Assembly: GCA_016699975.1 (NCBI GenBank) | Contig: CP064994.1 | Location: forward strand, 321,222-385,221 | Source: Candidatus Moraniibacteriota bacterium | Lineage (GTDB): Bacteria > Patescibacteriota > Minisyncoccia > Moranbacterales > UBA1568 | DNA length: 64,000 nucleotides | Direction of reading: 5' to 3' | Part shown: positions 1-62,834 of the stretch, one piece after another | How the letters are laid out: the number at the start of each line of letters is the position of its first letter | Position numbering within the stretch: position 1 is the stretch's first letter | Notes under the pieces: generated by a model | Told to the model about the DNA's origin: nothing | The model's database searches: none | The model's input: only the letters and a program-made list of their open reading frames with translations | Translations under genes and position numbers: made by a program

Positions 1-350
1 AACCACTTCCGAATGGCGAGACGAGAGTTGTCCTGAAACTGCCGAAGAAAATCGCGCCCGTCCAGGTCGCAGTCTTTCCGCTTCTTAAAAATAAACCTGA
101 GCTCGTTGCGAAAGCCCGTGAGGTATTCTCGCTGCTTGGGAAAAAGCTTGTGTGCGAGTTTGATGATCATGGGAATGTCGGGAAGCGCTATCGTCGTCAG
201 GACGAAATCGGCACACCCTTTTGTGTGACGATCGATTTTGAGACACTCGATGATAGAGCGGTGACGGTGCGCGATCGCGATACCATGGCACAAGAGCGCA
301 TCTTGATCGAGAGTCTTCCTGAGACTTTGGAATCCCGATTCCAGTCATGA
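1..350 (+). CDS. glyQS: glycine--tRNA ligase, C-terminal anticodon-binding domain (5' end lies outside the window)
   Basis: Frame-3 translation ...LVAKAREVFSLLGKKLVCEFDDHGNVGKRYRRQDEIGTPFCVTIDFETLDD..VTVRDRDTMAQERI matches the class II GlyRS anticodon-binding domain. The ORF is open to the window start. Confidence 0.7.
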   Translation, partial: PLPNGETRVVLKLPKKIAPVQVAVFPLLKNKPELVAKAREVFSLLGKKLVCEFDDHGNVGKRYRRQDEIGTPFCVTIDFETLDDRAVTVRDRDTMAQERILIESLPETLESRFQS

Positions 351-1654
351 ATTTTTTAGAAAGAGTTGATATATCTGAAACGTGTATGCGGTACGAAAAG
401 AAAATTTTGCCGAATGGACTGCGTATTCTTCTCGCTCCTATGAAGGAAGCGGAAACAGTGACGGTTCTTATCGGCGCGGCGACGGGATCGCGGTACGAGA
501 CGCGTCGCGAGAATGGACTCTCGCATTTTTTGGAGCACTTGTTTTTTAAGGGAACGAAGAAACGTCCGACGGCGCTCTCAATTAGCGAAGAGCTCGACGG
601 TGTTGGCGGAGAATACAATGCGTTTACCTCCAAGGATCGAACCGAATATTATGCGAAGGTAGACAAGAAGCACGCGGCACTGGCGCTCGATGTTGTGAGT
701 GACATTTTTTGAACTCCACTTTGCCTGCGGAAGAGATTGAACGGGAGCGCGGACCCATTCTTCAGGAGCTCAATATGTACGAGGATACGCCCATGCGTCA
801 TGTGGGCGATCTCTTTGAATCGCTTCTCTACGGAGATCATCCGCTCGGGTGGGAGATTATCGGGGCTCGCGAGAATATCAAGCGCTTTCGGCGATCGGAT
901 TTCGTGCGATATCTCACTCGAGCGTATGTCGCCTCGAATGTCGTCGTCGGTATTGCTGGCAACTTCGATATCGAGTGGGCGAAGAAAACGATCGCTCGCG
1001 ATTTCTCTGGCATGCGAGTCGGAAAAAATCCTGCCCGGAAAAAAATCGTCGAGAAACAAACGTCTCCCGCCGTGTTTGTACAGAATAAAAAAACCGATCA
1101 AACACATTTCCTTCTTGGCGTCCGCACCTTTGACTTCTTTCATAAAGATCGCTACGCGCTTTCGGTGCTCTCGGGAATTTTGGGAGGTGGTATGTCGAGC
1201 CGATTGTTTCTTGCCGTTCGGGAGCGGCGCGGTCTTGCCTACAGTGTCCATACCGGTGTCGATGCATACCACGATGCGGGGTATCTCGCGACCCAGTGCG
1301 GTGTTCAGCACAACAACCTCACAAAAACAATTCGCGTTATTCTCGACGAGTACCATCGTTTGTGTGAGGAACTCGTTTCCGATCGAGAACTTCTCAAGGT
1401 GAAAGAGCATATCAAGGGAAGCTTGGGAATGCCTCGAGTCTTCTGACGAGATTTTGGGGTACCTTGTGGATCAAGAAATTCTGAAAGGAGAAATCGTTCT
1501 TCCAGAAGAGCGGTGCGCGCACATCGATGCCGTATCTGCCGAAGATATTCGGAAGGTCGCTCGAAATATTTTTCGCCCCGAACATTTGAATCTTTCCATT
1601 ATCGGACCACATAAATCGTCCTCGAAACTCGCTTCTGTTCTCTCGTTCTCGTAA
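347..1654 (+). CDS. M16 (insulinase/pitrilysin) family zinc peptidase, split into three ORF pieces (347-712, 709-1446, 1454-1654)
   Basis: The three pieces translate colinearly as one M16 peptidase (N-term ...LLAPMKEAETVTV...SHFLEHLFFKGT..., middle ...EEIERERGPILQELNMYEDTP..., C-term ...SAEDIRKVARNIF...). Frame changes sit at a T run near 705-712 and a CC near 1431. Frame 2 is restored after the second change. Confidence 0.7.
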
Positions 1655-1660
1655 AATGCT

Positions 1661-2695
1661 ATGACGCCGTCCCAATATGTCGATGCGTGGACTCGTATTC
1701 TCTTTCGTGGAGCGATTGCGATCGTAGCACTTTTTTTCTTGTGGATCATCCGCGATATTCTCGTCCTCTTTGTTGTGGCGATTATCATCACGGCATCCAT
1801 CGCGCCGGCGGTTGAGCGGCTCGAATCGTTTCGTATCCCGCGGACGCTCGCCGTTTTGGGAATGTATGCGATCGTCGTTACGTTTTTGGTGACCGTTGTT
1901 TCCCTTATCGTCCCGGTACTTTCGGGACAAGTTCGAGAATTTTCTTCGAATGCAGCGTCATACTTCGAGAAGGCTTCTCTTTTTGTAAGCGGCATCGAAT
2001 CGTATTTTCGAACACATGATGTTTCTGTGGGAACCTCTTCTTTTGCTTCGCCTGCCGAATCTTCTTCTGCCGTATCCGGACTTTTTTCGACGACGGTAGG
2101 AATCGTGCGGGGAGTGTTTTCTACGGTCGTTGTCTTTTTTCTTTCGCTTTATATGTCGCTTGAGCGGCGCGGTATCGACAAGGTGCTTCGCACCGTGACC
2201 CCTGTTCTCTATGAAGAGCGCGTTCTCTATTTTTCTCGTCGCATACAAGACAAAATTGGTCAGTGGATGTTCGGACAACTTCTCCTCATGACCATTGTGT
2301 TCTCGTTTTACTTTATCGGTCTCACTGCGCTCGGCATTCCGTACGCGCTTATTCTCGCGCTTCTCGGAGGACTCCTTGAAATGGTACCGTATGCTGGTCC
2401 GACGGTAGCAGCGATTCCAGCGATCCTCCTCGGATTTGCACAGGCGCCCTGGATTGGACTTGCCGTTATTGTGCTATACATCGGCATTCAGCAAGTGCAG
2501 AATCATGTGATTATTCCGCAGGTGATGCGCAAAGCGGTAGGACTGAATCCCGTTGCCGTGATTCTCGCCGTTTTGATCGGAGCGAAGCTTGCGGGAATCG
2601 CCGGTATTCTGCTCGCTGTTCCTTCGGCGGCCGCACTCTCCGTTTTTACGGAAGAATTTCTGGGGAACAAAAAAGGAATGGAAGGTCTCGAATGA
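1661..2695 (+). CDS. AI-2E family transporter (PerM/YhhT-like, UPF0118) membrane protein
   Basis: 344-aa polytopic membrane protein with AI-2E family signatures (...GQWMFGQLLLMTIVF..., ...LEMVPYAGP...IPQVMRKAVGLNPVAVI...). Confidence 0.75.
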   Translation: MTPSQYVDAWTRILFRGAIAIVALFFLWIIRDILVLFVVAIIITASIAPAVERLESFRIPRTLAVLGMYAIVVTFLVTVVSLIVPVLSGQVREFSSNAASYFEKASLFVSGIESYFRTHDVSVGTSSFASPAESSSAVSGLFSTTVGIVRGVFSTVVVFFLSLYMSLERRGIDKVLRTVTPVLYEERVLYFSRRIQDKIGQWMFGQLLLMTIVFSFYFIGLTALGIPYALILALLGGLLEMVPYAGPTVAAIPAILLGFAQAPWIGLAVIVLYIGIQQVQNHVIIPQVMRKAVGLNPVAVILAVLIGAKLAGIAGILLAVPSAAALSVFTEEFLGNKKGMEGLE

Positions 2696-2742
2696 AAATA
2701 TTTTTGGAGGGGTGAGACGAAAATTTTGGATCGGACATTTTC

Positions 2743-3495
2743 TTGTTGAGAACTAATATGTTTCGGGAAGATCAAGAAACGGAGAGTATCGATGTTGATG
2801 AATGTTCCGCGGAAAAATCGGCGCCGCTTTTTGTGGTGGCGACCCCGATCGGCAACATGGAAGACATAACGCTGCGGGCACTTCGAATACTCGAAGAGAG
2901 TGATCTTATTGTGTGCGAGGATACGCGCGTCGCAAAAAAATTGCTTTTCCGTCACGGCATTTCGAAGCCGCTTCTTGCTGTTCCGCAGCGCGCGAGTGAA
3001 GAAAAATTTACTCGGATCCTGGACGCGCTTCGCGGTGGGAAGCGAGTTTCGCTTATTACCGACGCGGGGACACCGGGAATCTCCGATCCCGGGAACGAAG
3101 TTGTAGAGCGTACGATCCGAGCCGGATATGAGGTATCTCCCGTTCCTGGGCCGAGTGCTCTTGCTGCGATACTTTCGGTTGCAGGTATCGATACGAGCGA
3201 GTTTTGTTTCAAGGGATTTCCTCCGCACAAAAAGGGAAGAGAAACATTTTTCCGAGCGGTTTCCGATTCTCTCGTGCCGGTCGTCTATTATGATTCGCCC
3301 TACCGCGTCATAAAAAACCTCGAACTTCTTTCGACGCTTTCTCCCGAGCGGAATATCGTTCTTGGGCGCGAACTCACAAAGGTGTTCGAAGAGGTTCTTC
3401 GAGGGAATGTGGTTCACGTGCTTGAATATTACGAAAAGCACCCCGAAAAGGTGAAGGGGGAATTTGTGCTCATGGTGTTTCGAGGAAAGTCATAA
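2743..3495 (+). CDS. rsmI: 16S rRNA (cytidine1402-2'-O)-methyltransferase RsmI (tetrapyrrole-methylase fold)
   Basis: ...LFVVATPIGNMEDITLRALRIL...LIVCEDTRVAKKLL...ITDAGTPGISDPG... are diagnostic RsmI motifs. Confidence 0.8.
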   Translation: MLRTNMFREDQETESIDVDECSAEKSAPLFVVATPIGNMEDITLRALRILEESDLIVCEDTRVAKKLLFRHGISKPLLAVPQRASEEKFTRILDALRGGKRVSLITDAGTPGISDPGNEVVERTIRAGYEVSPVPGPSALAAILSVAGIDTSEFCFKGFPPHKKGRETFFRAVSDSLVPVVYYDSPYRVIKNLELLSTLSPERNIVLGRELTKVFEEVLRGNVVHVLEYYEKHPEKVKGEFVLMVFRGKS

Positions 3496-4053
3496 GAGAG
3501 AGTGAGGAGAGGGGAGTTTTTCTTCTTTTGTTCAAGGAATCCTTTTCAACAACTCTCCTGAACCGATGTGTTCTTTTTGACCGACAAACATACTCTGGAG
3601 AGTGAGAAGAGAAATTTCTTCCTCAATTCTCTTCACTCGAAAAGTGATCACAATATTTTCTCGGTTATTTTTTGAAATGAGATCGACTCTTTTCTCGGAA
3701 GGTTTGAATGAGAAAATTTTCTTGAGCAGTTTTCTCTTTTATTGAGAGCGTCATTTTTTTCTGAGAGTGAAAAGAGTTGTCTCGGGTGGAGCGCAGCAAG
3801 AGTTTTTCGGATTTTTTGAGTTTCTTTTCTCATATTCCTATGACGACGATGCTTTTTTCTGTGTCGAAAGTTCTCTTGTGAGCCTCATCTTTTTGAAGTG
3901 AGCGCATGTTTAACAAACGTCGGAGAGAAAACTCGAAGAGCGGAAGCGCCCTTTTGAGGAGTATCATTTCGTGTTTTCTCACTCCCCGGTCTTTTTATAT
4001 GATGTTTGTCACATTTGTAACAGTGAAAGTATTTTTCCTGTAGCCCGTATTTT

Positions 4054-5469
4054 ATGTCAAAATTCTATATTACAACCACTCTTCCTTACGTGAACGGAAA
4101 GCCTCACATTGGTTTTGCGCTCGAGGCGGTTCAGGCAGATGTTATCGCTCGTTTCGAGCGACTCCGCGGAAAAGATGTGATTTTCAATATCGGAACCGAC
4201 GAGCATGGTGCGAAGATTTATGAAAAGGCGAAAGAGGAGGGAATAACACCTCAGGAGTATTGTGACCGCATGTCGAAGCCATTTCGCGCACTTCGTGAGA
4301 CACTCGACATTCACTTTACCAACTTTATTCGAACGACGGATGAGTTTCATGTGCGCGCAGCGCAGGAATTTTGGAAGCGCTGCGCGGACCGGGGAGACAT
4401 TTACAAGAAAAATTATCGAATGAAGTATTGTGTTGGGTGCGAGCTTGAGAAAACGGATTCCGATTTGGTTGATGGGCGATGTCCGGAACACCCGAACCGC
4501 GATTTGGAGACCGTAGAGGAAGAAAATTATTTTTTCAGGTTTTCCCACTATCGAGCAGCACTCCTTCGCCTCTATGAAAACGATCCGAAGTTTGTGGTTC
4601 CCGAAAAGCGCCTGAATGAAATCGTGGCGTTCGTTGATCGCGGTCTCCACGATTTTAGTGTGTCGAGGCTTGCACAAAAAATGCCGTGGGGTATTCCCGT
4701 TCCCGGAGATGAAGCGCATGTCATGTATGTGTGGTTCGATGCGCTCGTCAATTATATTTCCACACTCGGGTGGCCGGAAGATATGGATTCCTTCGAAAAG
4801 TTTTGGCCCGGAATTCAAATTGCCGGCAAGGATAATTTGCGGCAGCAGTCGGCGATGTGGCAGGCAATGCTTCTCTCTGCGGGAATCGAGCCATCACGAA
4901 AGATTCTCATACACGGGCATGTGATGAGTGCGGGACAGAAAATGTCGAAGAGTCTTGGAAATGTCGTATCGCCCGACGAACTGATAGAAACCTTTGGCAT
5001 AGATGGGACGCGATACCTGCTTCTTTCTGCGGCTCCTTTCGGCGAAGACATGGATATAACGAAAGAGCGCATGATCGAAAAATATAATGCGGATCTCGCA
5101 AACGGACTCGGGAACCTTGTGTCGCGTGTTATGAAACTGGCGGAAGGCATGGAGGAGAAATATGTTCCGCATGTTCGAGAATTTCCGAATGAATTTGTCT
5201 CTTCATTTGAGTCGTATCGCCTCACGGAAGCGCTCGACTTTGTCTGGAGTCTCGTTCGTCGCGCGAATAAAAATATTGAAGAAACGAAACCCTGGGAGCT
5301 CAAGAAGACGGACTATGAGTCTTTCGAGCGCGTACTTCAGGAGCTTCTTTTTGATATTGAAACCATTGCTTTCCTCCTCGGCCCGTTTCTTCCGCACACG
5401 TCGGAGAAAATCTTTTCTTTTTTCTCAAGCGAAGGCGGGCGAAGCGTTCTTTTCGAACGAATACGATAA
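4054..5469 (+). CDS. metG: methionine--tRNA ligase
   Basis: Class I aaRS with HIGH-like ...PYVNGKPHIGF... and KMSKS; CxxC...C zinc knuckle ...CVGCELEKTD...GRCPEHP... Confidence 0.9.
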   Translation: MSKFYITTTLPYVNGKPHIGFALEAVQADVIARFERLRGKDVIFNIGTDEHGAKIYEKAKEEGITPQEYCDRMSKPFRALRETLDIHFTNFIRTTDEFHVRAAQEFWKRCADRGDIYKKNYRMKYCVGCELEKTDSDLVDGRCPEHPNRDLETVEEENYFFRFSHYRAALLRLYENDPKFVVPEKRLNEIVAFVDRGLHDFSVSRLAQKMPWGIPVPGDEAHVMYVWFDALVNYISTLGWPEDMDSFEKFWPGIQIAGKDNLRQQSAMWQAMLLSAGIEPSRKILIHGHVMSAGQKMSKSLGNVVSPDELIETFGIDGTRYLLLSAAPFGEDMDITKERMIEKYNADLANGLGNLVSRVMKLAEGMEEKYVPHVREFPNEFVSSFESYRLTEALDFVWSLVRRANKNIEETKPWELKKTDYESFERVLQELLFDIETIAFLLGPFLPHTSEKIFSFFSSEGGRSVLFERIR

Positions 5470-5484
5470 TTTTTCATAGGAAGT

Positions 5485-5802
5485 ATGAAAAAAGAAAAGT
5501 TGGTTCGGGACAATATCCCGGATAGAATGAAAAAAAGAGGGAAAGTCCCCGGTTGTTCGCAGTGCCTCTCCCCAAGAATATGAGAATTTTCTCCGGGAAA
5601 ACTTTTTGAAGAGGTCAATGAATTTCTTGAGTCTGGAGCTCAAGAAGAGCTTGCCGATATCATGGAAGTAGTCTTCGCTCTTGGCGAGATGAAAGGCGTG
5701 GATGAGAGAGCGCTTCGAAATATTCGAGAAGAGAACCGACGAGAACGCGGCGGTTTCTCTAAAAGAATTCTTCTCGAGAAATTCGAGGAAGAGCATTCTT
5801 GA
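5485..5802 (+). CDS. small MazG-like nucleoside triphosphate pyrophosphohydrolase, about 105 aa, interrupted by two frame changes
   Basis: Three frame segments read MKKEKLVRDNIPDRMKKRGKVP / VVRSASPQEYENFLRE / KLFEEVNEFLESGAQEELADIMEVVFALGEMKGVD...RERGGFSKRILLEKFEEEHS. Together they resemble the short archaeal/CPR-type MazG/HisE-like NTP pyrophosphatase. Frame switches fall at a C run (~5547-5550) and an A run (~5598-5601). The 60-aa cutoff hides it from the ORF track. Confidence 0.5.
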
Positions 5803-18079: not shown

Positions 18080-18669
18080 ATGAAATTTCTTCTTGGTAAA
18101 AAATCGGAATGACCACGATTCACGACGTGGAACGAGGTGCGCAAAATGTGACACTTCTTGAGTGTGACGTGAACACGATTACGCTCCTTCGCGACAAGGA
18201 GCGTGACGGCTATAGTGCCGTCCAAGTTGAGACTTCGTGGTCTAAGCGCCGCAGTGTTCGTCGTGAGTTTCGCTTGGATCAAGACGCTTCCGAAAATATT
18301 ACCTCCGAAAAAGAGGCTTTTTCCATAGGAATGGTATTGTCGGTCGAGAAGTTTGTGGTGGGAGAAAGAGTTCGTGTTTCGGGGATAACGAAAGCAAAAG
18401 GGTTTCAGGGAGTCGTAAAGCGTCACGGATTTAAAGGGGCACCCAAAACACATGGGCACAAACACGACCTGCGGGCCCCTGGTTCGATCGGTGCGACTAC
18501 GCCGCAGCATGTGACCAAGGGTATGCGTATGGCGGGACGTATGGGAGGGACACGATCGACATCGGAGAATCTTCGGATTGCCTATGTGGATCCCGAGAAG
18601 CGATTGATTGGTGTTCGGGGTGCCGTTCCCGGTGTTCCGGGAAGCATCGTTGAGATTTGTTCGCTCTAA
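18080..18669 (+). CDS. rplC: 50S ribosomal protein L3; N-terminus displaced by a single-base frame change in an A run
   Basis: ATG at 18080 gives MKFLLGKK. After a 6-A run (18098-18103) the frame shifts into ORF 18109 (MTTIHDVERGAQNVTL...KGFQGVVKRHGFKG...). Restoring one A gives MKFLLGKKIGMTTIHD, the canonical L3 start. Confidence 0.85.
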
Positions 18670-19667: not shown

Positions 19668-20505
19668 ATGGCTATCCATGTTTATCGGAAAAATACGGCC
19701 GGACGAAGAAATATGTCCGTGGTGAGGCCTGAGGGGGGTGGCCTCTAGTTCTTCTCGTCCGGAAAAATCTTTGACGGTTTCACTGTCTAAGAAATCCGGT
19801 CGTTCCCATGGGAAAATTTCGGTAAGACACCGAGGCGGCGGCCATAAGCGACGCTATCGCCTCGTCGATTTCTTGGAAGAGACTCACCGGAATATTCCGG
19901 CGACGGTAGTTGCTCTTGAAAAAGATCCCAATCGTTCGGCGCTTATTGCGCTCCTTCAGTATGCAAATGGCGCTCGGGCGTATGTGCTTGCCGCTACGGG
20001 GCTCGCTGTTGGGTCCAAGGTTATGTGTGGTCCTGATGCTCCTGTCGGGCCAGGCAACCGCTTACCGATTCGTCGTATTCCGGTTGGAACCCTGGTATCG
20101 AATGTCGAATTGTTTCCCGGAAAAGGCGGACAGATTGCCCGAAGTGCAGGATCTCGCGTTACGCTTATGTCAATAGACGGCGAGAAGGCGCAGATCCGGC
20201 TTTCTTCTGGTGAGATCCGTTTGATTAACGTCGAGTGCTATGCTACCGTTGGCGAAGTAAGCAATTTTGAACATAGTGCGGAACGTATCGGGAAAGCTGG
20301 TCGAAGTCGGTGGAAAGGGCGACGTCCTGCCGTCCGAGGCACAGCCATGAATCCCGTTGACCATCCTCATGGAGGAGGGGAAGGACGGCAACCGCTTGGT
20401 ATGCATCCAAAAACTCCGTGGGGAAAGCCAGCTCTCGGAAAAAAGACTCGCAAAAGGAAAAAGTGGACCAATCAATATATCGTCAAACGTCGGTTCAAGA
20501 AATAG
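19668..20505 (+). CDS. rplB: 50S ribosomal protein L2; N-terminus split by a frame change at a G run
   Basis: ATG 19668 gives MAIHVYRKNTAGRRNMSVVRPEGG (canonical L2 N-terminus). After GGGGGG at 19733-19738 it continues in ORF 19738 (...VRHRGGGHKRRYRLVDF...HPHGGGEGR...). Confidence 0.85.
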
Positions 20506-22710: not shown

Positions 22711-23016
22711 ATGCGCGTACAAGACATCCGAGAAAAAAATTTAGAAGAACTTCGTGAATCTCTTCGTGAGAGCTGCGAAAAGTTGCGCACGGTTCGATTC
22801 AGTATTGCCCAAAACGAGACAAAAAATCATCGTGAACACCGTCATATTCGACGTTCGATCGCTCGAATGCAGAGTGTCCTTCGTGAACGAGCCCTTGTTT
22901 TCATAAGCGCCCACTATGACTCCTCAGAAATCCACAAATTCGACAACAAAAGCCCCTATTTTTCGTGGGGTCGTGGTGAGCAAAGCGCAGGAAAAGACGC
23001 TTGTCGTTTCTGTTGA
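22711..23016 (+). CDS. rpmC: 50S ribosomal protein L29; the ORF as assembled reads through into rpsQ, with the true stop probably near 22904-22906
   Basis: L29 core MRVQDIREKNLEELRESL...SIARMQSVLRERAL is ~65 aa. A TTTT run at 22898-22901 precedes an out-of-frame TAA. Removing one T yields ...RERALVS-stop, a normal L29 length. As assembled, the ORF overlaps rpsQ by ~100 nt. Confidence 0.75.
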   Translation: MRVQDIREKNLEELRESLRESCEKLRTVRFSIAQNETKNHREHRHIRRSIARMQSVLRERALVFISAHYDSSEIHKFDNKSPYFSWGRGEQSAGKDACRFC

Positions 23017-24551: not shown

Positions 24552-24590
24552 AATTTTCTTTCGAACACCCGATTCCCCTTTCTTTTTTCT

Positions 24591-24776
24591 ATGGCAAAGA
24601 CATCCACCGCAGCTCGAGCTCGAAAAAAACCGAAGTTTTCTACACGCATCGTTCGACGGTGTTGGCGATGTGGAAGAAAACATGGCTATTTGCGAAAATT
24701 CGATCTCTGCAGAATTTGTTTTCGAGAACTGGCGAGTCGGGGAGAGGTGCCGGGAATAAGAAAATCTTCGTGGTAA
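24591..24776 (+). CDS. rpsZ: 30S ribosomal protein S14 type Z (zinc-binding, 61 aa)
   Basis: ...[27 protein letters not shown]... is a C4 zinc knuckle. Confidence 0.9.
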
Positions 24777-24864
24777 TGTTGTCGGAAGAAGGTCAAAAAT
24801 AAACTCTCATGCGAAACCATTCTTGAAGCGAGTAACTCGACTTCTCTGTAAATCTCACGTCTCT

Positions 24865-27409: not shown

Positions 27410-28688
27410 ATGTACGCGGCACTCGTTCGGATTTTTTCCGAAAAAGAAATACGAAAAAAACTCATTTTCATTCTCGGGATGCTCGTTGTTTATCGTGTGG
27501 CAGCGACGATTCCGCTTCCCGGTGTTGATGTGGCACGACTCGAGCGATTCTTTGATGAAAATCAATTCCTGGGCCTTCTCAATGTCTTTTCGGGGGCGGT
27601 TTGAGCAATGTCTCGATCGTGCTTTTGGGGTTGCTCCATACATTACAGCGTCCATTATTATGCAGCTCCTCACCACGGTTATTCCGCGAGTGGAGCAAAT
27701 GTACAAAGAAGAAGGAGAGATCGGTCGACAGAAGTTCAACATGATTACTCGCTGGCTCACGATACCGCTCGCCGTGCTCCAGACGTTTAGCATGATCGCG
27801 CTTCTTAAGTCACAGGGGGTTTTGGGTATCGTCACCCCTTTTGATACAGCGGCCATGGTAATGATTGCCACGGCCGGTACAATTTTCCTGATGTGGCTCG
27901 GCGAGCTTATCACGGAGAAGGGGCTTGGGAACGGTGTCTCCATTTTGATCTTTGCGGGAATCATGGCCGGAATTCCCGGAATTCTATTTCAATTTTTTGA
28001 CACGCTCGGACAAAATCCGGATGATTTTTTCAATACGATAGTTTTTGGAGCGGTAGCGCTTCTTATGGTTGCGGGCGTCGTATTTGTGAATGAGGCGCAA
28101 AGAATCATTCCTATTTCGTACGCGAAACGTATTCGTGGGGGCGTTGCGGCTGCGGGTACTTCAACGCATTTGCCGCTTCGGGTAAATCAGGCCGGTGTTA
28201 TCCCTATTATTTTTTCTGTGTCGCTCGTGGTTCTTCCTACCGTAGCTGCGGGCTACTTGATGCAAAATTCCGGAAACGTTACCGTCGCACAGGCGGCCTC
28301 TTTTGTGTACTACCTTTTCCAGAACATGTGGTTTTACGGAATATTTTATTTTGTTCTGGTTGTGCTGTTTACGTATTTTTATACGGCTGTTATTTTTGAT
28401 CCGACAAAAATTGCCGAGAATCTCCAGAAACAAGGAGGCTATATTCCTGGAATACGACCAGGGACGCCCACAGTTGAATATCTTTCGAAAGTATTGGGTC
28501 ATGTAACACTTGTTGGCGCTCTTTTCTTGGGGACAGTTGCGGTTTTGCCGATTGCGGTTCAGGGACTCACCGGAGTGCAGTCTCTCACTATCGGAGGAAT
28601 CAGTATTCTCATCGTGGTTTCGGTAGTTCTTGAGATGGTGAAACATATTCAGAGTCAGCTGGCTATGCGAAGTTACGAGGGTTTTTGA
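27410..28688 (+). CDS. secY: preprotein translocase subunit SecY; two single-base frame changes near the 5' end
   Basis: N-term MYAALVRIFSEKEIRKKLIFILGMLVVYRVAATIPLPGVD... (ORF 27410-27604) continues as ...GGLSNVSIVLLG... (a third frame) and then ...VAPYITASIIMQLL... (ORF 27369-28688). The switches fall at G runs ~27592-27596 and ~27627-27630. Confidence 0.85.
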
Positions 28689-28994: not shown

Positions 28995-29668
28995 ATGAAT
29001 CATCCTCGAACAGTTATTCTTTTGGGTCCTCCGGGAAGTGGGAAAAGTACGCAGGCGAGCGCCATGGTTCGAGAGATGGATGCGGTACATATCGATATCG
29101 GGCTTGCACTTCGCAAAACCGCCGAACTTCCTACCCCGCTCGGAAGAAAGGTTTCCGAAATCATGAATCACCGCATGGGACTCGTGCCGGATGATATAGT
29201 GGAAGAGGTACTCTCGGGAGCCCTTGTTGCAATTCCAGGAGAAGCATTGGTGGTGCTCGACGGTGTGCCTCGGCGTTTGGAGCAAATTTCTTTGGTGGAT
29301 TCGATTCTTTCAGTCTTTGGGCGAACCATTGGAGCGGTGATCTCGATGACGCTTCCCGAAGAAGAAGTTCTGAAGAGAATTGGGTTACGGCGCTTCTGTA
29401 AAGTATGTGGCCGACCCATTCCTCCAGAAGGGCCTCTCATTACGGCTTGTCCTTCTTGCGGAGGCGAACTTCTAAAAGAAAAGACGATACCGAAGAAGGA
29501 GTGCGGAAACGATTCTCGGTCTTTCGCTCGAATACTGCTCCCGTTCTTGAATACTATCGAGCCAAAGGATTATTGTATGAAGTAGATGGCCTCAAAAGTC
29601 CGGAAGCTCTGTTTGAGGATATTCGAAGAGTGCTTTCAAGTGAGCCCTCTCGTGATTCTCTCGTTTGA
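28995..29668 (+). CDS. adk: adenylate kinase (zinc-lid type); one frame change
   Basis: ...ILLGPPGSGKSTQA..., CPSCGG lid in ORF 28995, C-term ...RKDDTEEGVRKRFSVFRSNTAPVLEYYRAKGLLYEVDG... in ORF 29405. The switch is at an A run ~29475-29478. Confidence 0.85.
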
Positions 29669-32513: not shown

Positions 32514-33569
32514 GTGATTCGTGTTGCTGATACAGCATTTCCTGCTGCGGCGAATGACACTCTCTCGGAGCTTCGACAGGATCTCGTGACGGGAGATTGG
32601 GTAGTCATCGCGACGGGTCGCGGAAAACGACCCGATGATTTTTCGCGTCATGAGGCAGAGCACGTCCCTTCAGGAAGTGTTGATGAGTGTCCTTTTGAGC
32701 GTCCTGAGGAAACCAAACAAGAGAAAGACGTTCTCATCTATACGTCGAATGATGATTGGACACTGCGAGTCTTTCCGAATAAATACCCCGCCGTTTCTCG
32801 AGGGGGAATGCCGCGTGAAAGAGGCGAAGGGCCATACTTTTCTGTAACGGGGAATGGCTACCACGAAGTGATCGTCACTCGAGGTCATGAAACTCAGCTT
32901 GCTACTATGGAGTCGTGGCAAGTAGCGGAAGTACTCGATGCCTATCAAGATCGATACATGTCGCTCATGAACAAAAAAGGGTGTTTCCTACATTCAAATT
33001 TTTCATAATCACGGGAAAGAAGCGGGTGCGTCACTTGCTCATCCGCATTCTCAGTTGATAGCGATTCCCGTTGTTTCTCCGTATATTCAGCTCGAATTGA
33101 CGGGATCCGAGCGATATTTCCGCAAGAACAAGGAGCTGGTATATGGAGTTATTGCGGAGTATGAATCCGAAGCGAAAACCCGAGTGGTGTATGAGAATGA
33201 AAAATTTCTCGCTTTTTGTCCGTTTGCTTCGCGATCGGCTTTTGAGATTCATGTTATGCCGAAGCGTTCCTCGCCTTATTTTGAAAGAATCGGTGACGAA
33301 GAAAAGTTGTTGGCAGCGGAGCGCTTCGCGCCGCACTGTTTTCGCTCTACCAGGGGCTTGGAAATCCGGCCTATAATTTTTATCTTCATACGGCTCCGTG
33401 CGATGGAAGAGACTATTTGCACTACGGGTGGCATATCGAAATTTTACCCCACACGTCCACCTGGGCGGGGTTTGAACTTTCGACCGGCATAGAAATATCT
33501 GCCATTCAGCCAGAGAAAGCAGCGGCATATCTGAGAGAACAGCTCACAGGGAAAAGATTTTCTGTATGA
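32514..33569 (+). CDS. galT: galactose-1-phosphate uridylyltransferase family (GalT-like); at least two frame changes
   Basis: ORF 32514 has ...LRQDLVTGDWVVIATGRGKRPDDF...RVFPNKYPA...GYHEVIV... ORF 33055 has ...HGKEAGASLAHPHSQLIAIPVV...FLAFCPFASRSAFEIHVMPK... A third frame has ...YNFYLHTAPCDGRDYLHYGWHIEILPHTSTWAGFELSTGIEI.... Switches are at an A run ~32973-32978 and a G run ~33353-33356. Confidence 0.7.
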
Positions 33570-50261: not shown

Positions 50262-51285
50262 CTGGTGAGTTCAAGAATTTAATGCCCCTTTTCCAGTACC
50301 CTGGCAAAAACTTCATTCGGCGTCAAATAGTTAAGCGCTTTCCTCGGTCGATTGTTGAGTTTGTCCTGAACTGACCGAACTTCTTTTGGGAAATTTTATC
50401 AAACGGGCATTTCTTCGGAAAATACTCTCGTAACAATCCATTCAAGTTTTCCACACCTCCTTTCTGCCAACTTTTGTAGGTATCGCAGAAGTAGGAAGGA
50501 AGAGAAAGTTTTTGTTTCGTTTCTCCGTGCAAAACATTCTCCGTTCCATTATCTCTCGTAATACTTCTCCTCAATTGCTGCGGAAGCCGAGAGAAATGTC
50601 CCTGTATCGCTCGTTCGCTTTCGACCGCTGTTTTGTTTGGAACTTTCTTTAATCGGCATAGCTTCATTTTTCGCTCGTACTGTACCGAGAGTACTGACTT
50701 CTGTTTTGAGAATATCACGGAATCGGTTTCCCAGTCTCCAAAGTGTGTACGCTTGGTAATGACCGCGGGTCTTTCGTGAATGGGTATTCTATCCGGAATC
50801 GTCTCTTTTCGCGGTTTTCGAGAGAACTTTGGTCGTCTCCGCTTCTGTTTTCGTCGCAGATGTTTGTACCATCCGCCGACCCTTCCTTCTCCGCGGTAAA
50901 TGTAATCATAGATGGATTCGTAACTTATCGAGGTATCCGTACACGAGGAAAGATTTTTCGGAGGAGATGTTTTCAACCGGCCGGCTATCTGCTCCGGTGA
51001 ATGTCCCTTCAGGAGTTCGCTTTCGACAAACTTTTTCAGTTTCTCGTTTTGCCATTTTTCCAGTTTTCTTTTGTTGGTATTTTTCTTTCGTCTTTCCGCA
51101 TACGCTTCAGCTCGGATGGCAACATAGGAAGGTGCGGACTCGAATTTCTTCGTATCTCTCGCTTGATGACGGAGTAATCTCTTCCAAGTTTCTCCGGATC
51201 CATGTTTTCTTTTCTTCATGCGGAGAAAGCTTTCGATTCGCTCTCGTTCAAAGAAGGTTATGGACGTTCCTTTTGGCATATTCAT
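50262..51285 (-). CDS. IS30-family transposase (copy A); C-terminus shifted by a single-base indel
   Basis: MNMPKGTSITFFERERIESF..., ...SPEQIAGRL...HFGDWETDSV...RDNGTEN... Past a T run on + (~50359-50362) the alternative frame encodes the canonical IS30 end ...EVRSVQDKLNNRPRKALNYLTPNEVFARVLEKGH, stopping inside the terminal repeat. Confidence 0.85.
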
Positions 51286-51347
51286 AGCGTTTTTGGAAGT
51301 TAACGCCGGAGTATACCAGAAAAGGGGCTTCGGGGTTTGAATTCACC
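50264..51347 (-). mobile_element. IS30-family insertion sequence, copy A (~1.08 kb) with imperfect terminal inverted repeats and a 3-bp ACT target duplication
   Basis: Ends GGTGAGTTCAAG... (50264) and ...TTGAATTCACC (51347) are inverted. ACT flanks the element at 50261-50263 and 51348-51350. The internal transposase has the DDE IS30 signature. Confidence 0.85.
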
Positions 51348-51568: not shown

Positions 51569-51643
<75 letters not shown>

Positions 51644-53523: not shown

Positions 53524-53681
53524 TGCCTCGTTTCAGCTACGAACTTTCTTCTTGAAAGATCCGAGCCTTTCTGATACGCTTACAAGGCGTGTGTTTCTTC
53601 CAAAGAAAGAAGTGCTGAAGTTTGAGAGAATCTCGTTGTTTGTCGCAGATAAGAAAGACATCGCTTCAGTTGTTTGCTATT

Positions 53682-53754
53682 GCCAGGGTAGCTCAGTTGG
53701 TTAGAGCACGGGACTCATAAGCCCGGGGTCGAGAGTTCGAATCTCTCCCTGGTA
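53682..53754 (+). tRNA. tRNA with CAT anticodon (elongator Met or Ile2); the acceptor stem only pairs if one C is restored in a C run
   Basis: D-arm gctcagttggttagagc, anticodon loop ctCATaa, T-arm gagag-ttcgaat-ctctc. The 3' acceptor strand as assembled (cctggta) mispairs with 5' gccaggg, but pairs well if ccc were cccc. Confidence 0.5.
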
Positions 53755-53781
53755 CTCGGGAAGGAAAAGTTTCAGAAGATC

Positions 53782-53858
53782 GGGGGCGTAGCTCAGTTGG
53801 TTAGAGCGTCTGCCTGTCACGCAGAAGGTCACGGGTTCGAACCCCGCCGTCCCCGCCA
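53782..53858 (+). tRNA. tRNA-Asp (anticodon GTC), CCA encoded
   Basis: Acceptor gggggcg/cgtcccc (one G:U), anticodon stem tctgc/gcaga, loop ctGTCac, T-loop ttcgaac, 3' g-cca. Confidence 0.85.
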
Positions 53859-55347
53859 GTCCGAACACGAAGCCCTTTCGAGCACTCTATCGAAGGGCTT
53901 TTTGTATTGTAGGAGCGCTTTTCTGTCCTTGAGAGTCGAGTTCGATAGTAGAAAAGAGAGCAATTCTTTCTTTTCTTCGGGGTTGGCTTTTTCATACAGG
54001 AACGAAGCCTTATTCGCGAGTTCGAGAATCTTTGAGCCGAAATCGTAATAATCCAAGCTGGCATGCGTCATCTTGCTAATCTTCTCATCGAGCTCTTTTA
54101 TGCGTGTTGAATACTCGTCTGCTTTGCGTTCGTAAAAATCTTTTGCAATGTTGCCGTCGAGCTTGTCCTCATAGAGGCTGTCGAGCCGTTCTTCCAAAAG
54201 TTTTTTCTCCTCTTCGAAATTGCGCTTTATTTTGTCCGCCGTGGCTCTCTTGGTGGTGAGAGAAGTCTTGAGCCCCATGGCGACGTAAGAGACGGCTTCC
54301 TGGGGCATTTCAAGGCCGTGGAGGGAAGAAGTGATCTGCTTTTCTATCACGGTTTCATTGATCGCTTTTTGAGAGCAATTCGTTTCGAATTTGGTGCAGT
54401 GATAGTAGGTGTATTCCTTGCCGGATTTCTTCACTTTCTTTTCGGCGGTTATGGATCGTCCGCACTCTCCGCATACGAAAAGACCCTTGAAGATAAAGGG
54501 TGTCGCCTGATGCTTGGAGAGCATCTCTTTCTTTTCGAACCGATCGAGGTTGGCTTGGACTTTGTTCCAGAGTTCTTTTGGGATGAGCGGCGGGTGTGTT
54601 CCGGTATAGAGTTTGTCATTCCACTGAAAATCCCCGTAGTAGAACGGATTGCGAAGAAGCCGATGCATGGTGCTTTTGGTGAGCGTTCTTCGCCGCAGGT
54701 CTTCTTTGAATCGTTCAGGAGATATGAAACCCTCCGCTTTCAATCTTTGACGTAGGGAAAGAATGGAATAGGAGCCGGAGGCATAGAGTTCAAACATTTG
54801 GACAGCAAGCTCTTTGTGCGTCTCATCAACAACAGGGATGCTTTTCCCATCATGCTTCCCGAGCTTGTAGCCGATCGGGAGATTTGAGCCCGGGTATATG
54901 CCGCTTTCTGCTTTCTGATTCAGTCCCTTGCGTGCCTCTTCGCTCAAATTGTCCACGTAGTTCTTCGCCATGAGGACTTTGATTCCATGGATGAACTTTT
55001 GGTGTGAAGACGCTTCCTTCCCGATAATCTCGTTTTCTTTGACGAGGTATACCGTGAGACCGAGGTCATCGATGATGACGTAGTCCTTGAAGTTCCGATA
55101 GAGGCGGTCGGTTTTCTCCACGAGGATCGCCTCAATGTCGCTGTTCCCATGGAGATGCTCGATCATCTTGCCGAAGCCACTCCTGCCGGAACTTTTCGCT
55201 GTTTCGTCGTCCTCAAACTCTCGGACGATGTCTATCCGGTTCGCTTTGGCGAAGTCCGTGAGCAGTCGCCGCTGGGCGGGTATGGAATATCCCCTCCAAT
55301 TTTTGTTCTCTTGAAGAGACGCGAAGATAGGCGACAGCTTTCTTCAT
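53829..55347 (-). CDS. large serine recombinase (resolvase-domain integrase, ~505 aa); one frame change near the 5' end. The 3' end overlaps tRNA-Asp
   Basis: Reverse strand from ATG (55347-55345) gives MKKAVAYLRVSSREQKLEG (catalytic Ser motif). After a frame switch at a C/G run ~55291-55294 it continues ...YSIPAQRRLLTDFAKANRIDIVREFEDDETAKSSGRSGFGKMIEHLHGN... into ORF 53829-55166, which has a recombinase domain, a Cys-rich zinc ribbon ...CGECGRS...YYHC... and a coiled coil. Confidence 0.85.
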
Positions 55348-58687: not shown

Positions 58688-59221
58688 TCAAAGCGTGTCG
58701 AGGGGATTATGAGGACTGTTCATGATTCCGCATTCTTCCAATCGTATTTCCAGTGTTTTCTGAGAAACGCCATAGAATTTTGCGAGATCTCTGGCGTCTC
58801 GTGTTTCTTTATATTTTTTCCTCAAGTGCTCTTCCGGTATGAGGTACATGGCAGTCGCCTTATTGGCGCTTCTCTCAATGAGCCTTCGGACAAGATCTGA
58901 AGGAAGTGTGGATTCAGTTATGATTTTTTCGAGAAGCTTTACAAAAGCGATATCAAGGCTTTGGCAGAAATGAAAGAGCTCATGTATCTTTGTAAAGATT
59001 TGCCGGTTTGCATTCGAACTGGTTTTTACAAAGATGTAGACCCGCTTCATAGATTCGTCGGGAAACCAAAAGCCCTCCAGATAGTGGGGGCTTGGGTCTT
59101 TCCCTTCGGAGTCGAAGGGATTGCAAAAATGGGGAATTAATACGCTGTCCAGTATTTCTTCAAGTGAGCAATACTTAATTTCAAACCCAGACAAAACATG
59201 CTCCATGGGTTTAGTGCCCAT
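58688..59221 (-). CDS. ImmA/IrrE family zinc metallopeptidase (anti-repressor protease of ICE/prophage regulatory modules)
   Basis: HEXXH ...KIHELFHFCQ... and ImmA/IrrE C-terminal region ...EEHLRKKYKETRDARDLAKFYGVSQKTLEIRLEE... Confidence 0.75.
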   Translation of the reverse strand: MGTKPMEHVLSGFEIKYCSLEEILDSVLIPHFCNPFDSEGKDPSPHYLEGFWFPDESMKRVYIFVKTSSNANRQIFTKIHELFHFCQSLDIAFVKLLEKIITESTLPSDLVRRLIERSANKATAMYLIPEEHLRKKYKETRDARDLAKFYGVSQKTLEIRLEECGIMNSPHNPLDTL

Positions 59222-59296
59222 AGGAAATGTGATTTGATAGGGATATTGCCGAAAGATATCATCGATGAGTTTCTGGGAATAGTTTGTGAGTCGATT

Positions 59297-60385
59297 GGTG
59301 AATTCAAACCCCGAAGCCCCTTTTCTGGTATACTCCGGCGTTAACTTCCAAAAACGCTATGAATATGCAATGGAACGTCCATAACCTTCTTCTTTGAACG
59401 AGAGCGAATCGAAAGCTTTCTCCGCATGAAGAAAAAGAAAACATGGATCGCGGAGAAACTTGGAAGAGATTACTCCGTCATCAAGCGAGAGATACGAAGA
59501 AATTCTGAGTCCGCACCTTCCCTATGTTGCCATCCGAGCTGAAGCGTATGCGGAAAGACGAAAGAAAATACCAACAAAAGAAAACTGGAAAAATGGCAAA
59601 ACGAGAAACTGAAAAGTTTGTCGAAAGCGAACTCCTGAAGGGACATTCACCGGAGCAGATAGCCGGCCGGTTGAAAAACATCTCCTCCGAAAAATCTTCC
59701 TCGTGTACGGATACCTCGATAAGTTACGAATCCATCTATGATTACATTTACTGCGGAGAAGGAAGGGTCGGCGGATGGCAAAGATCTGCGACGAAAACAG
59801 AAGCGGAGACGACCAAAGTTCCCTGAAAACCGCGAAAAGAGACGATTCCGGATAGAATACCCATTCACGAAAGACCTGGCGGTCATCTTTACCAAGCGTA
59901 CACACTTTGGAGACTGGGAAACCGATTCCGTGATATTCTCAAACAGAAGTCAGTACTCTCGGTGGTATAGTACGAGCGAAAATGAAGCTATGCCGATTAA
60001 AGAAAGTTCCAAACAAAACAGCGGTCGAAAGCGAACGAGCGATACAGGGACATTTCTCTCGGCTTCCGCAGCAATTGAGGAGAAGTATTACGAGAGATAA
60101 TGGAACGGAGAATGTTTTGCACGGAGAAACGAAACAAAACTTTCTCTTCCTTCCTACTTCTGCGATACCTACAAAAGTTGGCAGAAAGGAGGTGTGGAAA
60201 ACTTGAATGGATTGTTACGAGAGTATTTTCCGGAAGAAATGCCCGTTTGATAAAATTTCCCAAAAGAAGTTCGGTCAGTTCAGGACAAACTCAACAATCG
60301 ACCGAGGAAAGCGCTTAACTATTTGACGCCGAATGAAGTTTTTGCCAGGGTACTGGAAAAGGGGCATTAAATTCTTGAACTCACC
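59297..60385 (+). mobile_element. IS30-family insertion sequence, copy B, inverted relative to copy A, with a 3-bp ATT target duplication; transposase degenerate
   Basis: Ends GGTGAATTCAAACCCC... (59297) and ...TTCTTGAACTCACC (60385) match the copy A termini. ATT is at 59294-59296 and 60386-60388. The internal sequence is colinear with copy A, with substitutions and several indels. Confidence 0.8.
59359..60370 (+). pseudogene. IS30-family transposase (copy B), disrupted by multiple indels and substitutions
   Basis: Start MNMQWNVHNLLL-stop, where copy A has MNMPKGTSITFF. The remaining transposase is scattered over ORFs 59524-59826, 59738-60100, 59982-60206 and 60100-60318. The canonical C-terminus ...RPRKALNYLTPNEVFARVLEKGH is present in a third frame. 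Confidence 0.7.
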
Positions 60386-60464
60386 ATTGAGTAGCACATG
60401 ATATCCTTGTTTTTGTTGGAATTCGAGGACGGCTGATTCAATCTCATTGGGACTTTGAGTGGCA

Positions 60465-60833
60465 TTAGTCTCTGTCCTTTGGCTGGGATTTGATGAACTT
60501 GGCATAACTGACGATGTTCCGTGCCTGCTGGTCGGTGTAGCCGTGGCTTCGAAGCGCGCTCGCGATCAGCCGGAGTCCGGAGTTTTGTCTTAACGGATTA
60601 TATTTGTCTTGTTTTTCCAAAAAGCCAATTTTTTCAAGAAAATCCTTCAGAGTGAGTCCGAGCCCTACTGCGAGGGCGCGCGAGGTGGTTAGCGTGAGCG
60701 TCTGGTACTTGCCACTTTCCAATTTGGAAATATATGCCAAAGAGAGATCGGACTTCTCTGCTAACTTGGAAAGAGAAATGCCGGACTTTATTCGAAGTCG
60801 CTTCACGGATTGTCCAATGGTGTTTGTGATCAT
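60465..60833 (-). CDS. XRE-family (Cro/C1-type) HTH transcriptional regulator, ImmR-like
   Basis: ...GQSVKRLRIKSGISLSKLAEKSDLSLAYISKLESGKYQTLTLTTSRALAVGLGLTLKDF... (HTH_3). Confidence 0.8.
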   Translation of the reverse strand: MITNTIGQSVKRLRIKSGISLSKLAEKSDLSLAYISKLESGKYQTLTLTTSRALAVGLGLTLKDFLEKIGFLEKQDKYNPLRQNSGLRLIASALRSHGYTDQQARNIVSYAKFIKSQPKDRD

Positions 60834-60965: not shown

Positions 60966-61238
60966 GTGCTTGCCAAAACTCTTTTCTTGTCGTATAGTAA
61001 TGTTAACAAAGTATTCGATATGGAATCGAGCAAGGCACAGCCAAAACATTCAGCAAAGAACCTCCCTGAACTCATCACGCTTCAGGAGGCTTCTGGCATT
61101 CTGAAGTGCCACCCAAATACGCTTCGGCAGTGGGACAAGAAGGGGATACTGAAAGCCCTGCGTTTTGACGATCGAAAGGATCGTCGTTATAAAAAATCCG
61201 ACATTATGAAATTCATAGAAGATCGAGGAAAGACATAG
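60966..61238 (+). CDS. excisionase-family HTH protein (Xis/AlpA-like), divergent from the XRE regulator
   Basis: ...LITLQEASGILKCHPNTLRQWDKKGILKALRFDDRKDRRYKKSDIMKFIE... is the excisionase-family HTH pattern. Confidence 0.65.
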   Translation: MLAKTLFLSYSNVNKVFDMESSKAQPKHSAKNLPELITLQEASGILKCHPNTLRQWDKKGILKALRFDDRKDRRYKKSDIMKFIEDRGKT

Positions 61239-61295
61239 AAGCTCTTTTTACAATTGCCTAAACCCATGGGTTTCTGTGGGCATGGCACTATAAAA

Positions 61296-61343
61296 ACGAC
61301 AACGACAAAGATGGTCTTCTGACCAGCACTTCGTCGTTGTCGT
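61296..61343. repeat. 15-bp near-perfect inverted repeat (ACGACAACGACAAAG ... CTTCGTCGTTGTCGT) around an 18-nt spacer that is itself palindromic (TGGTCTTCTGACCA)
   Basis: Read directly from the sequence in the 275-bp gap between the Xis-like gene and the downstream GT2 gene. Confidence 0.6.
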
Positions 61344-61512
61344 CTGCATTCGAAAGGATGCAGGGTAGTTCCGAAAGGAGCTATCGCTGGCTCGGGAGAC
61401 CTTTTTTGATTTCGCTACAATTTCCATAAAGTCGCCGCGCCAGCATTGGTAGCGGCTTTTTCTAAAATGGAGGGTTTTGGGGAGGCGCTTTTATCCGTAA
61501 CCAAAACTCTTT

Positions 61513-62834
61513 ATGGGTGTTTTTGAAGGGATTGATGCTTTACAGGTTGTGGTTGCTGTTTCGACCATTTTCCTCATTTCTTTGATAGACTTTGTTGTGC
61601 TTGTTCGCGCTCGCCTGCGCTCGCACCATGCCGTTCACGAGTACACCAAGTCGGATCTCGATTACACGATTCTCATTCCCATTTTTGGAAATATCTCGTA
61701 TTTGCGAAATGTTGAGTTTTTGAAGCAATACGCTCGGCATGTCGTCTTGTGCACTACCACGAAGGAAAGTCCGGAGTTTGATGTCGCGATAGACAAAGTC
61801 GCCGCAGAGCATGGATTCCGTATCTTTCGGTCTCATGTTCCGCTCGCCTCATCGGTGCAGAAGCCGAATCCATGGCGATTGTTTACCCACACTCTGCATG
61901 GATCGGGTGATCTGGCAAAACAAGAAAGCGATCAAAATGCTGGTCTCCGGTTTAACAAAGAAATAGCCCGAGATGAAATTATCCGCGACAGTTTTGCGGC
62001 GATTGATACGGGCTACTGCGTATTTTTGGACGGCGACACGGTGGCACATGAGAAACTCTTCAAGCTGGTTCATCTCATGCGGGAGCTTGGCTTTGATTTG
62101 GCGTCGGTTCGCGTGCTTGCCTCGAAGCAAGAAACAATTATGGAGAAATTGCAGTCGGTGGAATATGATCTGGCTATGGATGCGCGCAAGATTTACCCAT
62201 GGCTCACTTCTGGCGCATGCATGGTGGCAAAAACGAGCGTTATCAAGGACATCATGCAACATCATTCACTTTTCTTCAGCGGGGGCGATATTGAGATAGG
62301 AAGCTCGCTGGTATTCTGAAGTACAAAGTCGGACACATTCGTTTCGAGTTCTACACCGATGTTCCGTCTACCTTCAAAGCGTGGTTCAAACAGAGAATGG
62401 CATGGTTCGGAGGTGGTTTTCGCCATGCCGTTGTGAATCTCCATCGGTACGCTTGGAGGCATCCGCTGTTTTACTTCTATACCACGATCCTTGTGTATCT
62501 TTTGACGCCGCTTCGCTGGTACGAGGTTATCAATCATCCGCTCATATTGCCGCTTATCATTGTGCTGTATTGGGTGCTTATCTTCACGTTCCACTGGAGA
62601 ACTCGACGATGGTTCTATTTCCTGTTCCCATTCTATGCGCTCATACAGATTCTCATCCTGATCCCGCTCGGTATATTCACCTACTTTCGCATGGCATTCT
62701 CGACCAACAATATCGGTCTGATACGATTGCGTCGTGGGAGGGCGTTTGTACAACCGGAGCATCAGTCTCTCGAGCCCATTCAAGGGGAAGTTCGGAATGA
62801 GCGGCGGCTTGCTGATATTCGTGTTCGCGTATGA
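61513..62834 (+). CDS. processive family 2 glycosyltransferase (PgaC/IcaA/cellulose-synthase-like); one frame change
   Basis: ORF 61513 has an N-terminal TM, ...DYTILIPIFGN... and the DXD ...VFLDGDT.... After a switch near 62300 it continues as ...GHIRFEFYTDVPSTFKAWFKQRMAWFGGGF... (a Q(Q/R)xRW-like motif) plus four C-terminal TM helices in ORF 62397-62834. Confidence 0.7.

Follow-up and report, generated by a model that had tools for sequence, protein, structure and literature searches.

The window analyzed here is a 64,000-nucleotide (nt) stretch of the Candidatus Moraniibacteriota genome CP064994 (contig positions 321,222 to 385,221), in which many protein-coding genes, including secY, rplB, rplC, and adk, are divided among different reading frames. 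The question that this locus raises is whether these breaks record genuine gene decay or errors in the consensus sequence. The original prediction, drawn from the sequence alone, preferred systematic homopolymer error to decay, and the preference is borne out: the genome is a documented Nanopore assembly at low coverage, and the same species carries intact alleles. We conclude, with a probability of roughly 95%, that most of the breaks are residual R9.4.1 Nanopore consensus errors in a low-coverage genome rather than gene decay. A MazG-like gene is probably an exception.

Source genome, sequencing platform, and coverage

CP064994 derives from an uncultured bacterium from the Hirtshals wastewater plant. 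It is the metagenome-assembled genome (MAG) Hirt_18-Q3-R61-65_MAXAC.378, which is circular and 1,048,819 bp long, with coverage of 10.93x for Nanopore and 5.38x for Illumina (Singleton et al. 2021, PMC8012365, Supplementary Data 3), and it is classified there as Patescibacteria; Paceibacteria_A; Moranbacterales; UBA1568 (PMC8012365). The assembly pipeline ran CANU on R9.4.1 reads, followed by Racon, two rounds of medaka with the r941 model, and one Racon pass that used the Illumina reads (PMC8012365). Homopolymer indels are known to persist in R9.4.1 consensus sequences and to generate frameshifts, and Illumina polishing is needed for bins below about 40x (Sereika et al. 2022, PMC9262707). Nineteen of 20 intact window proteins correspond to NCBI entries in the range QQS21211-QQS21274, with IPL87_ locus tags; the twentieth, a malic enzyme, is recorded with a different start.

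Most of the broken genes compared are intact in independent short-read assemblies

We compared the window with Logan assemblies of SRA runs (SRR15021097, SRR12767646, SRR31893859, and ERR4678626) and with ENA assemblies that carry MEGAHIT or SPAdes contig names, all from other samples. Contigs were found through intact window proteins that matched residue for residue, and they represent the same species at 99.4-100% identity to the window. The first four contig groups in Table 1 give a total of 29.7 kb, with contig L110 analyzed separately; exact look-ups of rpsJ, the malic enzyme, and TrxB were unmatched, and the segments at 34.2-48.5 kb and 54-64 kb thus lie outside this same-strain comparison.

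Over the 29.7 kb, the window differs from the short-read contigs by 20 indel events and 55 substitutions, 34 of which stem from a single slightly divergent contig, L088. Relative to the closest contigs there are 0-2 substitutions and 3-4 indels per 2-4 kb. Substitutions usually exceed indels in ordinary strain divergence, and the indel-skewed ratio is thus unlike it. The broken alleles are private to this assembly: at the sites represented by at least two samples (both secY sites, adk, rpmC, 24583, and 24860), the samples agree with each other and all differ from the window, and the intact allele is present at every essential-gene site in the contigs that cover it. Comparison with a closely related genome had been proposed as a check, and it gives a clear answer at the essential genes. 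The M16 peptidase, L3, L2, SecY, Adk, GalT, the ABC-3 permease, and a hypothetical protein are each encoded by a single open reading frame (ORF) in the short-read contigs. Gene decay predicts that a disruption recurs in independent assemblies, and it recurs at none of the 12 coding sites compared with short-read contigs, leaving aside the MazG-like gene.

Breaks were mapped by reading all three frames and by tblastn with proteins of relatives, and the genes named in the original prediction are all indeed broken, with each break no more than a few bases from the predicted position. Three frames are traversed within 40 nt in secY, which encodes 426 amino acids (aa) in contigs L100 and L101, from two samples; adding two G's in silico yields a protein of the same length, which relatives match at 426 aa with 92% identity over 100% of the length. 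The severed start of rplC reads MKFLLGKKSE followed by a stop, with KIGMTTIHDV... continuing in the next frame and the Lys-Lys codons spanning the run; L3 is 196 aa in L088, and it is also unbroken in the relatives L081 and L085. The extra T in rpmC is missing from L089 and L090, which come from two different samples, and L29 stops before S17 in the short-read contigs. GalT is 351 aa in L100 and a single piece of 328 aa in the relative L085. For the M16 peptidase, contig L098 differs from the window at exactly the two break sites and has a single 436-aa ORF; the net change of -3 nt returns the window copy to its frame. The ABC-3 permease is 276 aa in L088, whereas the window ORF (14668-15729) reaches 353 aa with the longest possible start, with a genuine 3' extension of about 41 aa.

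The original prediction counted at least 18 split genes. We document 15 disrupted protein genes, namely 13 that it named, a gene for a 182-aa hypothetical protein (6371-6919), and the C terminus of the ABC-3 permease (15582). Contig L098 has one 182-aa ORF at the hypothetical gene. Between 6416 and 6542 the window has six G>A changes relative to L098, five of them within 23 bp (6520-6542) and including the TGG>TAG change at 6525; the cluster converts CAGAAGAAATTG to CAAAAAAAATTG and creates an A8 run. Either consensus miscalling of a purine-rich tract at low coverage or genuine local hypermutation could have produced this cluster.

Lengths after correction, or in intact copies, equal those of relatives exactly for SecY (426 aa), GT2 (440 aa), the M16 peptidase (436 aa), L3 (196 aa), L2 (278 aa), Adk (224 aa), and GalT (351 aa).

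Table 1. Frame-broken genes, other indel sites, and IS30 elements in the window, with the extent of short-read cover. Changes in run length are given with the window allele last; f0 and f1 are reading frames.
Feature	Window coordinates	Strand	Detail
M16 peptidase	347..1654	+	T7>T6 at 705-710 and 2-bp CA deletion at 1432; three frame pieces
MazG-like small NTP pyrophosphohydrolase-like gene	5485..5802	+	f0>f1 near A7 run 5530-5536; f1>f0 at A4 run 5598-5601; in-frame TGA at 5581
Hypothetical protein, 182 aa	6371..6919	+	A8>A7 deletion at 6808-6814; TGG>TAG nonsense at 6525
ABC-3 permease, last codons	15582..15586	+	A6>A5 deletion; C terminus replaced, ORF prolonged to 15729
Intergenic indels relative to L088	15623..17759		G4>G3 at 15623; T7>T5 and one substitution at 15721-15727; A5>A4 at 17243; A3>A2 at 17758
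rplC (L3)	18080..18669	+	A7>A6 deletion at 18098-18103; first 6 codons (MKFLLG) severed
rplB (L2)	19668..20505	+	G5>G6 insertion at 19733-19738; 278 aa in L088
rpmC (L29)	22711..23016	+	T3>T4 insertion at 22898-22901, just before the stop; ORF enters rpsQ
Intergenic	24583..24863		T7>T6 deletion at 24583-24588, 3 nt upstream of the rpsN start; TC deletion at 24860
secY	27410..28688	+	Deletions G6>G5 (27592-27596) and G5>G4 (27627-27630)
adk	28995..29668	+	One C lost at 29474 (true CTTCTCAAAAG), not a homopolymer; 224 aa in L100 and L101
galT	32514..33569	+	A5>A6 insertion at 32973-32978; GG>G deletion at 33321 brings the frame back
Intergenic, after galT	33586		A deletion
DUF3352-like membrane protein, ~932 aa	42874..45671	+	Split at A5 run 43721-43725
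IS30-family element, copy A	50264..51347	-	3-bp ACT target duplication; transposase frame broken several times
tRNA-Met, initiator-like	53681..53755	+	C4>C3 deletion at 53747-53749, 3' acceptor strand; three G-C pairs in anticodon stem
Large serine recombinase	53829..55347	-	One-base insertion in C4 run 55291-55294 (coding-strand G run)
IS30-family element, copy B	59297..60385	+	3-bp ATT target duplication; transposase in three frames
PgaC-like GT2 glycosyltransferase	61513..62834	+	Split at 62297-62304; one base lost from GGGAAG or GGAAAG
Short-read cover	1-10379		Contig L098 (Logan SRR15021097)
Short-read cover	13135-20989		Contig L088 (Logan SRR15021097)
Short-read cover	22723-26849		Contigs L089-L097
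Short-read cover	25930-34199		Contigs L100 and L101
Short-read cover	48560-50263 and 51348-54039		Contig L110 (ENA)

The indels follow run length and are indifferent to gene function

Seventeen of the 20 indel events are deletions in the window and three are insertions (P = 0.001). Fifteen lie in true runs of at least three identical bases, which make up 21% of bases (binomial P = 3e-7), and 11 lie in true runs of at least five, which make up 4.2% (P = 8e-11). The miscall rate per run climbs from 0.006% at length 1 to 0.8% at length 4, 1.4% at length 5, and 8.8% at length 6. No run anywhere in the window is longer than 8 bases, a length that just four runs attain. The prediction that frame switches lie without exception in runs of at least three bases fails for five of the 20 events, which are the losses of CA at 1432, TC within (TC)3 at 24860, C at 29474, one G of a GG at 33321, and A at 33586. 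Likewise, the description of the shifts as single-base changes holds for most events but not for two 2-bp deletions and a T7 run that is short by 2 bases.

The indels show no imprint of selection: eight of the 20 are intergenic, SecY is hit twice, and L2, L3, Adk, and the initiator-like tRNA-Met are hit once each. In unique sequence the density of small indels is about 0.7 per kb, and in repeats it is about tenfold higher. At the tRNA-Met (53681-53755), the extra C in L110 restores a regular 7-bp acceptor stem and cloverleaf, whereas the window copy has a shifted stem with a bulge and the lowest Rfam tRNA score within the window. Of the intergenic alleles, the T7 at 24583 is present in five contigs (L089-L092 and L094), and the TC at 24860 in all four that reach it (L089-L092).

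Two other explanations for individual breaks were rejected. An alternative genetic code does not apply, as the breaks are changes of frame and not stop codons, and methylation-motif basecalling error from the EcoO109I-type restriction-modification system (RGGNCCY) does not account for the rplB indel at 19733, where the motif is absent (one site, inspected by eye).

Breaks compared with more distant relatives

The genes for the DUF3352-like protein, the serine recombinase, and the GT2 glycosyltransferase each yield one full-length protein after a single-base correction. With one A added, the DUF3352-like protein can be aligned continuously through the junction (VLGEK|TVRG) with an 822-aa homologue, P0182. 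The recombinase break splits off the first 19 codons, which carry the catalytic-Ser motif, and by tblastn residues 1-24 fall in frame -2, with 19-489 in frame -3; the relative L102 (84% nt identity) has CCC at this site and one ORF starting MKKAVAYLRVSSKEQKLEGYSIPAQ. At 62297-62304 in the GT2 gene the window reads ATAGGAAGC, compared with ATAGGGAAGC in a relative with 92% identity, and the corrected protein of 440 aa has as its closest relative P0190, which is equally long (440 aa) and matches it with 92% identity over 100% coverage. Re-translation after correction had been suggested as a check on the breaks, and the corrected genes do become single full-length ORFs, as SecY, GT2, and the DUF3352-like protein (932 aa) illustrate. 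The sole same-genome NCBI protein returned is the C-terminal 564 aa (IPL87_01850) for the DUF3352 gene and the N-terminal 268 aa (IPL87_01980) for GT2.

The two IS30 copies are similarly affected. Both have the features of the family, with a transposase, terminal inverted repeats (the ends read GGTGAGTTCAAG and GGTGAATTCAAA), and a target duplication; the transposase matches NF033563 at 220 bits for the copy A ORF and 247 bits when stitched, against a cut-off of 80, and a Pfam search of the copy A ORF returned no match. The copies differ at 26 places in 1.09 kb, comprising about 17 indels and nine substitutions, and the indels are distributed over both copies such that each transposase is broken differently. 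At about 17 indels per kb, the density is some tenfold above that of unique sequence, presumably because short reads are not uniquely placeable in repeats during polishing. The copy A site is empty in the ENA contig L110, and copy A is thus a strain-specific insertion.

The MazG-like gene is probably a true pseudogene

The MazG-like gene, with two frameshifts, behaves differently. It was assigned to its family by an exhaustive HMMER search and alignment; searches of Pfam, NCBIfam, and PDB sequences gave no match. The family length is about 100-105 aa, and alignment with 10 homologues shows that the path from frame 0 to frame 1 and back to frame 0 corresponds to the ancestral protein. The window is base-for-base identical to the short-read contig L098 over 5440-5810, and in a MEGAHIT contig from a strain with 99.4% identity (L109) the A7 run is likewise present, whereas the second site reads A5. 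The first shift, at A AAA AAA AGA, is therefore common to three assemblies and two strains, and it is the sole defect of the gene in L109. As the shifts recur in short-read contigs they are probably genuine, and the gene is probably a true pseudogene that would have acquired one and then a second slippage mutation. We note that a +1 slip at 5530-5536 would give the family consensus exactly (IPDRMKK-EGKSPVV).

Neighboring elements and other observations

Contig L088 has its 34 substitutions in 7.9 kb at window positions 13329-17705, concentrated in the genes for ZnuA, the ABC transporter, EF-Tu, and S10, whereas the other SRR15021097 contigs differ from the window by only 0-11 substitutions; mixed strains or recombination in the SRR15021097 sample may account for the contrast. 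The rpsJ-rplC spacer (17747-18079) is unusually long at 333 nt, compared with 175-334 nt in relatives, and no Rfam family scores above threshold within it. The Rfam LOOT RNA motif (RF03000) is matched over its full length, with 74 bits for a gathering threshold of 46, at 61255-61385 on the plus strand, 128 nt upstream of the PgaC-like GT2 gene.

The inverted IS30 copies flank a segment of about 8 kb that contains tRNA-Ile, two tRNA-Met, and tRNA-Asp genes, an ABC transporter, the large serine recombinase, and an EcoO109I-type restriction enzyme with an N6/N4 methylase. The EcoO109I-like endonuclease and its methylase occupy 55369-56992 (compared with L102:1492-3497), and relatives at 84-92% identity have an NgoFVII-like endonuclease and an m5C methylase at the same place, beside the same recombinase; relatives thus differ in the defense genes that the island carries. 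IS30 copy B cuts a Peptidase_M78/ImmA-like gene (58691-59296 and 60386-60505, minus strand) at codon 40; this gene is the partner of an XRE repressor at 60465-60833. Judged from its sequence, this insertion is a real gene disruption, unlike the frameshifts.

Discussion

The origin of the breaks can be pictured as follows. A consensus built from about 11x Nanopore reads with one polish at about 5x Illumina would retain R9.4.1 error, in that the basecaller or polisher miscounts the bases of a run, mostly dropping one, and sometimes loses bases in short dinucleotide repeats. Such errors would strike wherever runs occur, in essential and dispensable genes, tRNA genes, and intergenic DNA alike, and in coding sequence each would appear as a frameshift; a neighboring pair with opposite signs, or a group that totals three bases, would mimic a restored frame. 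Raw reads from the original sample would then be expected to support the intact alleles.

Several observations weigh against this account or limit its reach. The comparison contigs come from other samples, and a private, real mutation is possible at any single site, and the DUF3352, recombinase, and GT2 genes were compared solely with relatives at 43-92% identity. Although little of the sequence is intergenic, eight of the 20 events fall there, perhaps because runs are more frequent in such DNA or because a few of the events are real polymorphisms. Real strain differences could account for some of the intergenic indels found only relative to L088, given the 34 substitutions in that contig. Finally, the MazG-like shifts lie at A runs and recur in short-read contigs, and homopolymer location is thus no proof of error on its own. 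The homopolymer-error interpretation is supported overall, but it probably does not extend to the MazG-like double shift, and a quarter of the errors lie outside runs of at least three bases.

Genuine decay is the most obvious competitor, as a reduced, host-dependent Patescibacterium might accumulate real pseudogenizing slippage mutations at short runs; replication slippage likewise favors homopolymers, two MazG-like shifts do recur in short-read contigs, and the ImmA-like gene is truly interrupted by IS30. As a general explanation we nonetheless regard it as very improbable. SecY, with its two hits, L2, L3, Adk, and tRNA-Met are indispensable, and the same species is intact, at 99.4-100% identity, in every short-read assembly covering the essential-gene and tRNA sites, which excludes wholesale decay for those essential genes. 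Indels far exceed substitutions relative to the closest contigs, nonsense mutations and larger deletions are absent apart from the single TGG>TAG in the G>A cluster, and the documented coverage is 11x Nanopore and 5x Illumina. Hits in ribosomal proteins, SecY, and a tRNA, none of which phase-vary, also count heavily against the runs being contingency tracts that toggle GT2, the DUF3352 protein, and the recombinase, with the consensus having caught the "off" state; genes of these kinds (for a glycosyltransferase, a membrane protein, and island functions) do undergo phase variation in host-associated bacteria, but the tracts here are 2-5 bases, much shorter than known contingency tracts, and we see very little chance that this is the cause. 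Recoding would mean that ribosomes are programmed to change frame at these sites or that transcription slips on the runs, as it does on the poly(A) tracts of some endosymbionts. It would suit the many shifts in A or T runs, and at the first MazG-like shift re-pairing of tRNA-Lys in the +1 frame is conceivable. However, the shift sites lack conservation, with same-species contigs and the relatives L081, L085, and L102 all using one frame, and shifts occur in both directions, also at G runs and nonrepeat sites, with no consistent heptamer (no search was made for stimulatory structures). Efficient transcriptional slippage usually needs runs of 9 or more bases, and none in the window exceeds 8. 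We give recoding next to no credence.

A mixed picture, in which consensus errors predominate and a minority of the breaks are true strain differences, is fairly probable and is in our judgment the most accurate description; it is compatible with residual Nanopore error as the explanation for most breaks. The minority would include the MazG-like gene, some of the indels seen only relative to L088 in intergenic DNA, and possibly the recombinase, GT2, and IS30 breaks. The MazG-like shifts are common to L098, and the first also to L109; L088 is a distinguishable strain, the absence of IS30 copy A from another sample shows real strain variation in the region, and the recombinase, GT2, and DUF3352 sites could be compared with more distant relatives only. 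On the other side, the breaks in these last three genes resemble the proven errors in that a short run has gained or lost a single base, and the IS30 copies differ mainly by indels rather than substitutions. There is also a slim chance that 5530-5536 is a real site read by +1 ribosomal slippage or by transcriptional loss of one A, such that an L109-type strain would still make a full-length enzyme and, more broadly, that a few of the island-gene breaks are real on/off variants.

Taken as residual consensus error, the breaks are a known artifact without biological novelty, and their value is as a data-quality warning for the CP064994 record. Pseudogene calls, split proteins (IPL87_01850 and IPL87_01980), extended ORFs (rpmC and the ABC-3 permease), tRNA structure, and inferences of gene loss are unreliable in this genome, and other genomes that this pipeline produced at low coverage are likely to share the problem. 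At least part of the DUF3352 protein and of GT2 has entered protein databases as truncated pieces that appear as shortened family members. The advice to treat any pseudogene call in the window with suspicion is warranted, although the MazG-like gene shows that not all are artifacts; near-identical public short-read contigs can separate the artifacts from the few real disruptions, exemplified here by the probably decayed MazG-like gene and by the two IS30 insertions.

The breaks can also be set beside known systems. They resemble prfB +1 and dnaX -1 frameshifting and poly(A) slippage in endosymbionts in that shifts appear at slippery runs in required genes, but the sites here are unconserved, with no fixed heptamer or direction and tracts of no more than 8 bases. 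Genuine pseudogenes of reduced genomes likewise have frameshifts at short runs, and the MazG-like and IS30-cut ImmA-like genes are probably of this kind; the other breaks depart from them in a nearly pure small-indel spectrum, in striking tRNA and intergenic DNA at similar or higher density, and in affecting essential genes that are intact elsewhere. Data from 454 pyrosequencing and Ion Torrent also have frameshifts at runs across all genes, but the documented platform here is Nanopore, and the 17:3 bias toward deletions and the losses in dinucleotide repeats fit it. The closest match is to the residual indels of Oxford Nanopore R9.4.1 assemblies (PMC9262707, PMC8012365), with which the window shares the platform and pipeline, a majority of one-base deletions, a rate that rises with run length, blindness to gene function, a higher rate in repeats, and absence from short-read assemblies. 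It differs from typical accounts of these in that about one-quarter of the events fall outside runs of at least three bases (CA, TC, and single C or A) and in its one G>A cluster, features that fit a consensus at very low coverage.

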